Below are positions 6,052 to 60,219 of a stretch of 64,000 nucleotides of DNA, piece by piece. Source of the DNA: Octopus vulgaris (lineage: Eukaryota); contig OX597841.1 in the NCBI GenBank assembly GCA_951406725.2, positions 22,878,001-22,942,000 of the forward strand, in the 5' to 3' direction. The notes below the pieces were generated by a model. That model was not told the DNA's origin and ran no database searches. It saw nothing but the letters and a program-made list of their open reading frames with translations. The translations under genes were made by a program, and so were the position numbers. The first letter of the stretch is position 1, and each line of letters begins with the position of its first letter.

Positions 6052-6779
6052 TTTTATAATAAATTTTGGTGATAAGATCAAACACGAATTTATCAATGAT
6101 TTCGTCTTTTGGTGAAACTTAAGAATTGACTCAGAGAAAATGGTAAAATTTCTCAAATAAATTCTTCACTTTATTAATGTTTTAATTAGGGAATAGTTTT
6201 GAAAGATGGTGAGCTAGTAGAATCGTTAGCACATCGGGTAAAAATACTTAGCCACATTTCTTTTGGCTTTTTACATTCTAAAAAACACCTTTTGGGTGTT
6301 GGGCCTCACAGACTCAATGACAAATGACCAAGACCTTTGGCAATATGCTGTGTATGTGAAGACTTACCAAGCCAAGTGAAATTGTAGTCATGACCGATAC
6401 TGGTATCACACAGCTGGCATGTAAAAGCACCCATGACACTCTCTGATGAATTCTGCATTAGGAAGGGCATCCAGTCGTAGAAACCATGCCAAATCAGATT
6501 GGAACCTGGTGCAGCCCCTCAGCTTACCAGCCCTGGTCAAACCATCCAACCCATGCCAGCATGGATAAGCCGTTCAAGAATTTGGACCTGGAGATCTCCA
6601 TTTCCAGCGACTTCGAGGGCCACGTCCCAGTGGTTTCGGGCGTCAACGAAGAGCCCTCGACTACAACAAGATGACCAAAGTTTTTTGGGTTTTTTTCCAA
6701 AGTCTGGGGTCTCCCGCCCCTAAGCCCTAGACCATCACCTAATCAACCTTACCCATCTTGTTGCTTAACAACAACAGCA

Positions 6780-27241: not shown

Positions 27242-27349
27242 TGTACGTATGTACATGCATGCATACATGCGTGCATACATACATACACACACACATACAT
27301 ACATATATATAATGAACTAACTGTTACTTTCTCAGATGCCGCACGGATT

Positions 27350-27400
27350 TTTGTCAGTGAACAGGTCGCGGTCTTAAAGCGACGAAAATATTTTGACAAA
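27350..27400 (+). ncRNA. Hammerhead-like motif with a G3-C8 variant core
   Basis: TTTGTCA-GTGAACA-G-GTCGC[9 nt]GCGAC-GAAA-ATAT-TT-TGACAAA. Confidence 0.55.
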
Positions 27401-27599
27401 TTAAATTTAAATGTTGAAGTGAATCGAACGGCTTTTGTGTGTTTCTCGTGGAGCTTTTAGGTGTTTTCGCTCAATAAAAACACTCACAACGCCCGGTCTG
27501 GGAATCGAAACCGCGAGTCCACTGCCCGAACCACTGGGCCATTGCGCCTCCACGAGACAACTAGATATGCTCCTTTATGAATACGAAGACATCATCTCT

Positions 27600-59234: not shown

Positions 59235-59753
59235 TACGGAGATGTACTTGCATAGCAAGTGATTTGATCTGAGATCGTGTGCTGAAACGAAAACAATTGC
59301 AGCGTGGAAGGTGTTTATAAGCCATTTAAGAAACACACAAAAGCCGTTCGATTCACTTCAACATTTAATTTGTCAATATATATATATATTACGGAGGTGT
59401 ACTTGCATAGCAAGTGATTTGATCTGAGATTGTGTGCTGAAACGAAAACAATTGCAGCGTGGAAGGTGTTTGTAAGCCATTTAAGAAACACAAAAGCCGT
59501 TCGATTCACTTCAACATTTAATTTGTCAATATATATATATATTACGGAGGTGTACTTGCATAGCAAGTGATTTGATCTGAGATTGTGTGCTGAAACGAAA
59601 ACAATTGCAGCGTGGAAGGTGTTTGTAAGCCATTTAAGAAACACACAAAAGCCGTTCGATTCACTTCAACATTTAAGTTTAATTTGTCAAAATATTTTCG
59701 TCGCTATAAGACCGCGACCTGTTCACTGACAAAAATCCATGCTGAATAAGGTT

Positions 59754-59791
<38 letters not shown>

Positions 59792-59935
59792 CAATTGCAG
59801 CGTAGAAGGTGTTTGTAAGCCATTTAAGAAACACACAAAAGCCGATTGATTCACTTCAACATTTAAGTTTAATTTGTCAAAATATTTTCGTCACTTTAAA
59901 ACCGTGACCTGTTTACTGACAAAAATCCGTGCTGC
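59235..59935 (-). repeat. Tandem ~153 bp repeats of an element carrying the G3-C8 hammerhead-like motif (59683-59733 and 59873-59923)
   Basis: TACGGAG.TGTACTTGCATAGCAAGTG at 59235, 59390 and 59543; the right part is the reverse complement of 27340-27445. Confidence 0.8.
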
Positions 59936-60219
59936 ATCTCTCATAAAAGATATATATATCCTTAAATTCTGTTGTAAAATATTTTCTTGTATGTCTTGTT
60001 CGTTAATTGCAATACACTTTGTTCAAAAGAGAACACTGGAGTCTGATGAGATTTTAGATAAACAGAACTTTATTCTTTTCATACACAAACAACAAATATT
60101 GTTGTTGACAAAATATTGAGAGAGGTTTTGTTCTTGGTGTAGTTGTAGCAGCAGATAACATGTGGTTAGTTGCTTGCCATCGACTGACTTCTAATGTCAT
60201 TCATTCTTCAACTGTTCCC

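Follow-up and report, generated by a model that had tools for sequence, protein, structure and literature searches.

The question raised by this locus is whether a hammerhead-like motif, in which the usual pair between core positions 3 and 8 is reversed, is a genuine ribozyme spread by a mobile element, and whether it still cuts. The motif lies in a stretch of 64,000 nucleotides from Octopus vulgaris (contig OX597841.1), hereafter the window. An earlier note, made from the letters of this DNA alone, had described a minimal hammerhead at 27350..27400, and every element of that description was located on the plus strand. The features of the window that bear on the question are as follows.

27314..27333, plus strand: upstream tract of the pseudo-LTR (ACTAAC, a pyrimidine run and a CAG end), resembling a 3' splice site or initiator context
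27334, plus strand: putative transcription start, the A of AGATG, at which many genomic copies start with an extra G
27350-27356, plus strand: 5' strand of stem I, TTTGTCA, 7 bp (from the sequence and the fold model)
27357-27363, plus strand: core positions 3-9, GTGAACA (GUGAACA in RNA), with G3 at 27357 and C8 at 27362
27364, plus strand: extra G between A9 and 10.1 (from the sequence)
27365..27383, plus strand: stem II of 5 bp (GTCGC at 27365-27369, GCGAC at 27379-27383) with a 9-nt loop that differs among subfamilies
27384-27386, plus strand: G12-A13-A14, read as GAA (from the sequence)
27387-27392, plus strand: palindrome AATATT (AAUAUU in RNA, 15.1 to 16.1; from the sequence and the descriptor)
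27393, plus strand: U17, last base of the UUU site (from the sequence)
Between 27393 and 27394, plus strand: predicted cut, placed by hammerhead numbering
27394-27400, plus strand: 3' strand of stem I, TGACAAA (from the sequence and the fold model)
27401..27446, plus strand: remainder of the pseudo-LTR, interrupted here by a different repeat that begins near 27445
59637..59742, minus strand: second intact copy, whose core to GAAA occupies 59696-59726 and precedes the 3' tail of the element
59827..59939, minus strand: third copy, with G5A in the core, arranged in tandem with the second and lying some 200 nt upstream of it
59329..59534, minus strand: two tandem 3' fragments (BLAST pieces 59488-59534 and 59329-59381)

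The motif has the build of a type I minimal hammerhead, with U4, G5, A6, N7 and A9, G12, A13 and A14, A15.1-U16.1, H17 and stems I and II all in place. The consensus letters C3 and G8 are absent, and the Watson-Crick pair between these positions is retained as G-C. Features of Penelope minimal hammerheads are present as well, namely the palindromic stem III, the extra base after A9 and the G10.1-C11.1 pair (G27365-C27383). Two exact motif matches occur in the window, and none of 100 shuffles yielded two; a descriptor that accepts any Watson-Crick 3-8 pair together with a palindromic stem III matched the two intact copies only, with no match in 30 shuffles of the window. In the third copy a G-C pair of stem II has become A-U, changed on both sides, and this copy opens with an extra G at the putative start. 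The start of either tandem 3' fragment is no more than one base away from the predicted cut.

Such a likeness could in principle have arisen by chance and been multiplied as the repeat spread. Few masters stand behind all the copies, so copy number alone proves nothing, and the Rfam hammerhead models matched neither the window nor the 101-nt motif. However, a copy with a canonical core from a sister family in the same genome is likewise without an Rfam hammerhead match, and the miss is therefore not due to the swap. The descriptor found no match when the 1.2-kb 3' region of the element was shuffled 2,000 times, and a hammerhead built alike occupies the corresponding position in five related elements. 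These positional homologues largely refute a chance origin, which we now find hardly credible; the motif is almost certainly a hammerhead homologue. By definition, a search based on CUGAnGA would miss it, as the earlier note had claimed.

The motif belongs to a mobile family, as had also been proposed: the exact G3-C8 core is found at 6,133 genomic places (exact 21-nt patterns; 6,685 pattern matches overall). G3 is combined with another letter at position 8 at 364 places, and another letter stands at position 3 at 188 places; among 100 listed of these 188 matches, C3 occurs in 11 and is never combined with G8. The family copies have the same 3' end, to which a tail of some 60 nt may be added, and are truncated to varying extents at the 5' end; they often form head-to-head pairs or tandem arrays, often within (TA)n. 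The head-to-head pairs are often 42-44 nt apart and joined at or just past the putative start (e.g. L063:837-1058). At two loci (L167 and L177) the two arms of such a pair differ in loop II, which suggests two different RNA templates per insertion. One further locus (L021:1963-3100) holds a retrozyme-like tandem array of units of about 190 nt, each with the motif and most with a broken stem II.

An associated Penelope element with RT and GIY-YIG domains, for which the earlier note had recommended a search, was indeed found. The sequence upstream of one motif copy led to a GIY-YIG-like frame, and a search with this frame gave 150 scored matches among 4,606 candidates. Of 30 loci selected on protein alone, 25 have the motif region no more than 1.5 kb from the endonuclease (one other is partial and four lack it); the same holds for all ten long-frame loci and for nine of ten older loci. 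It sits about 1 kb past the stop codon of the RT-endonuclease frame. The long frames, of 839 and 1025 aa, contain YVDD, DKSG, a C-x3-C-x2-C linker and GIY-YIG, with the RT motifs identified by eye. Pfam PF01541 (GIY-YIG) matched one of the two frames, that of 1025 aa, with an E value of 1.8e-5; no Pfam RT family matched either frame, and a Pfam search of a 118-aa fragment gave no match. The build is that of an endonuclease-bearing Penelope-like element: RT then GIY-YIG in one frame, inverted or tandem partial copies and an optional tail. The linker CQSNCAVC (in L063 and L064) and the (TA)n flanks are traits of the Neptune clade. As described in the accessible part of PMC8557442, that clade shares with the octopus element the order of RT, C-x2-5-C-x2-C linker and GIY-YIG, as well as (TA)n targets, inverted 5'-truncated copies and an optional tail. 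The host thus appears to be a Neptune-like Penelope element, a clade name given from motifs and with a tree that holds no reference Neptune protein.

Relatives of this element provide the comparison needed for the swap. A sister family in the same genome has 53-54% protein identity and joined the G3-C8 family at 94/95 in a tree of unnamed homologues. Its hammerhead has the same length, lies 524 nt past its stop and has a near-identical stem II; of the 4,294 places of this family, the first 100 listed include 98 with C3-G8, and C17 was seen at 20 of 30 sister-family loci. At position 9, 100 listed of the same 4,294 places have C in 89, A in 8 and T in 3. The sister hammerhead is thus mostly A9C, with the canonical A9 in a minority of copies, and the family (L083-L087 and L182-L211) is younger, with frames of up to 1312 aa that are about 99% alike. 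An unrelated stretch in the 3' flank of L087, which combines a canonical CUGAUGA with a GAAAC some way off, is possibly the hammerhead of another repeat. Among 14 metagenome relatives, the 3' flank contains a hammerhead in four, and stem III is palindromic in every one of these: two are C3-G8 (L118 and L122) and two U3-A8 (L119 and L120, the latter spotted by eye, its 3-bp stem II being below the descriptor limit). The other ten loci, in which no hammerhead was seen, mostly have short 3' flanks; L126 has none in the 850 nt beyond its stop. Single departures were also noted, U15.1-A16.1 in L118:4973 and U3-A8 combined with C9 in L119:2497. A distant-homologue search for a third family returned only the G3-C8 and sister families.

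Pair 3-8 therefore covaries, as G-C, C-G and U-A, all Watson-Crick, appear at the same place in related elements. Since the sister family and the four metagenome relatives have C3-G8 or U3-A8, parsimony suggests that G3-C8 is probably the derived state and arose on the branch of the G3-C8 family. The view that the swap is compensated thus gains support from these five related elements, together with the published rescue by C3G/G8C that is discussed below.

The accessible part of Cervera and de la Pena 2014 (PMC4209133) describes Penelope minimal hammerheads that share with the octopus motif the place in the pseudo-LTR, the extra nucleotide between 9 and 10.1, G10.1-C11.1, the palindromic stem III, solo and inverted copies and a common U17. 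The 56 rows of its Fig. S3, as far as that figure was available, hold 53 C3-G8 and three U3-A8, with no G3-C8 and no cephalopod. Small dimer-cleaving hammerheads, according to the available text of PMC6765202, likewise combine a short palindromic stem III with association to Penelope elements. The natural U3-A8 variants (Perreault 2011, PMC3088659, and Schistosoma Cercyon, PMC4209133, both from the accessible text) are also compensated at 3-8. However, U3-A8 takes two transitions and keeps a purine at position 8, whereas the octopus G3-C8 takes two transversions, puts a pyrimidine there and, unlike U3-A8, lets G3 pair with position 17. The engineered C3G/G8C cores in the accessible parts of PMC11167929 and PMC9901934 have the same letters as the octopus core, but they are laboratory mutants, whereas the octopus core is the wild type of a high-copy family. 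In the accessible part of a 2026 octopus repeat annotation (PMC13282606) the words hammerhead and ribozyme are absent. A natural, high-copy G3-C8 variant of the Penelope hammerhead is, in our view, real and well supported. In the literature searched, G3-C8 was found in engineered form only and not in nature. Outside that scope lies a 2017 survey by Lünse, Weinberg and Breaker of small dimer-cleaving hammerheads, reportedly the largest of such motifs, and priority for the variant depends on its content.

We then consider how the motif varies within its own family. Across 92 copies, retrieved by the core pattern with at most three mismatches and leaving out 50 loci picked for variants at 3 or 8, a second letter reached at least 10% in ten columns, some of them linked, and all ten fall in the leader, in loop II or in the downstream part. 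The earlier note had called for covariation of stems I and II and conservation of the core across copies: stems and core are indeed spared by the common variants, but compensatory change within the stems at the level of subfamilies was not seen inside the G3-C8 family. By eye, G3.G8 makes up about 40% of the listed copies with G3 and a letter other than C8 (L162-L181, L074, L077 and L080). Together with C9 in 89 of the 100 listed sister places, this hints at relaxed constraint. The G3.G8 share exceeds the expectation for a transversion, and most of the G8 rows (21 of 24) belong to the older type. An amplified G3.G8 intermediate was considered and rejected: with positions 3 and 8 masked, 18 changes were counted against 17.4 in shuffles, with no clustering.

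These patterns bear on whether the motif, though truly homologous to hammerheads, has lost any useful rate of cutting, its fold being kept for the RT or an internal promoter, or simply by youth, and G3-C8 being a tolerated or accidental double change. The sister family reached thousands of places with A9C, and the core lies 24-30 nt past the putative start in a group of elements whose promoters are internal (PMC2377424). On the other hand, the two transversions keep a Watson-Crick pair, and the rest of the core, the palindrome and the stems are intact across subfamilies; because of this, selection on a catalytic fold fits better than drift.

According to the accessible part of PMC11167929, in the Anolis Penelope (Poseidon) hammerhead either C3G or G8C alone abolishes cleavage and the double change partly restores it; pairwise mutagenesis found the G:C swap to be the sole rescue in that region (PMC9901934, accessible part). 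A G3-C8 variant is said in the accessible text of PMC3884650, from data unpublished there, to be more active with G17 than with C17. In our fold model, a competing 3-17 pair forms with a probability of 0.98 with C17, 0.67 with the native U17 (as a G3.U17 wobble) and 0 with C3-G8, and the lower pairing with U17 would be in line with that report. This G3-U17 pairing also fits a motif that has lost its activity. UUU is a weak cleavage triplet. In the modelled monomer, stems I and II have pair probabilities of 0.87-1.0 (0.4 for the outermost pair of stem I), the palindrome stays open, and closure of stem III within one molecule costs about 5 kcal/mol. Weak cutting, as dimers, is what metazoan minimal hammerheads display in the accessible parts of PMC4209133 and the review PMC6765202.

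A fast ribozyme, active as a monomer through hidden contacts between loop II and the flank of stem I and routinely trimming or decapping its transcript, would draw on the stem I of 7 bp, long for a Penelope minimal hammerhead, and on the two tandem fragments in the window that begin at the cut site. We consider it very improbable, as loop II is free to vary among subfamilies, the modelled closure of stem III in a single molecule is costly and about a thousand copies appear to stem from uncut RNA.

The last point comes from the 5' ends of the copies. The upstream tract is kept in just 2 of 30 core-pattern loci, most of which begin near AGATG at 27334. A purine precedes AGATGCAGCA at 1,208 genomic places; among the first 100 listed, the base before it, read by eye, is G in 85 and A in 15, with unrelated flanks. 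A script count of 19 start junctions gave 13 G, 3 A, 3 C and no T. In full-length L1 insertions an extra G is the mark of a copied cap (PMC11702581, accessible part). These ends suggest that transcription starts at 27334, with G3 lying 23 nt further on, and that about a thousand copies derive from uncut, capped RNA; the extra-G copies span the cut site, and their templates would therefore have been uncut, as most templates probably were. Some of the extra G's could come from microhomology with the inverted arm. The tract at 27314-27335 was also weighed as a 3' splice site, but a start site is the better fit to junctions that carry the extra G next to unrelated sequence on the upstream side. 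The copies have no more than a single G in common there, and on this ground splicing from a first exon or leader was rejected. In four sets of RNA contigs, neither a GT-AG joint into the 27314-27333 tract nor an accumulation of ends was seen. Contigs from four runs (three organisms) contain the motif region and, being contigs, show neither ends nor level.

A predominance of uncut templates is what a non-cutting homologue would give, and the hammerhead mutants of another Penelope element left its insertion in vitro unaffected, with no reads ending at the cut site, in the accessible part of PMC11167929. The junctions at the cut site, however, may speak for some activity. A 9-nt window that ends at this site holds 118 of them and the following window 90. 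When junctions were inspected by eye, no base past the cut site was shared in 20 of 100, compared with about 9 of 90 in the control, roughly twice as many (a script gave 6 of 30). This excess is a weak hint of some cutting and is open to microhomology bias. On balance, complete loss of useful cutting seems unlikely to us, and it is quite likely from these sequence comparisons that the motif still cuts, weakly and as a dimer.

The explanation that we prefer, and hold to be probable, is a hammerhead of a Neptune-like Penelope pseudo-LTR in which pair 3-8 flipped to G3-C8, likely a slow cutter and probably one that acts via dimers. A promoter in the pseudo-LTR would begin capped transcripts 23 nt ahead of the core. 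For the most part these would stay uncut and be copied by the element's RT, which would initiate internally, at sites that lie downstream of the hammerhead. This would account for the short copies, thousands in number, that stand alone or head-to-head and are often set in (TA)n. The cut would fall after U17, slowly, probably when two copies pair through their AAUAUU palindromes. Because cutting would remove the cap and the first 60 nt of the RNAs, its most likely role is to hold the element back weakly or to trim tandem transcripts, and insertion would not depend on it. A bolder version remains tentative and, to our minds, rather doubtful: that this is the first active high-copy G3-C8 hammerhead, having crossed a valley of two transversions, in which U17 limits the G3-17 trap and the motif, 60 nt into a capped transcript, is a decapping switch gated by dimer formation, cutting only when tandem copies are co-transcribed.

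The natural alphabet of pair 3-8 is thus widened from C-G and U-A to G-C, with the sister elements as built-in controls. Descriptors with a fixed CUGAnGA would find no ribozyme in the octopus family, a point of relevance for Penelope clades reported 'without' hammerheads. The extra-G copies point to a mapped start site and to uncut RNA as the main germ-line template, and so bear on the purpose of Penelope hammerheads. Two octopus families with altered cores, G3-C8 and A9C, offer a direct test of whether catalysis has been tuned down or lost. Elsewhere in the window, positions 1-1154 are occupied by a tandem array of a 137-nt unit, of which dispersed single copies are also found.
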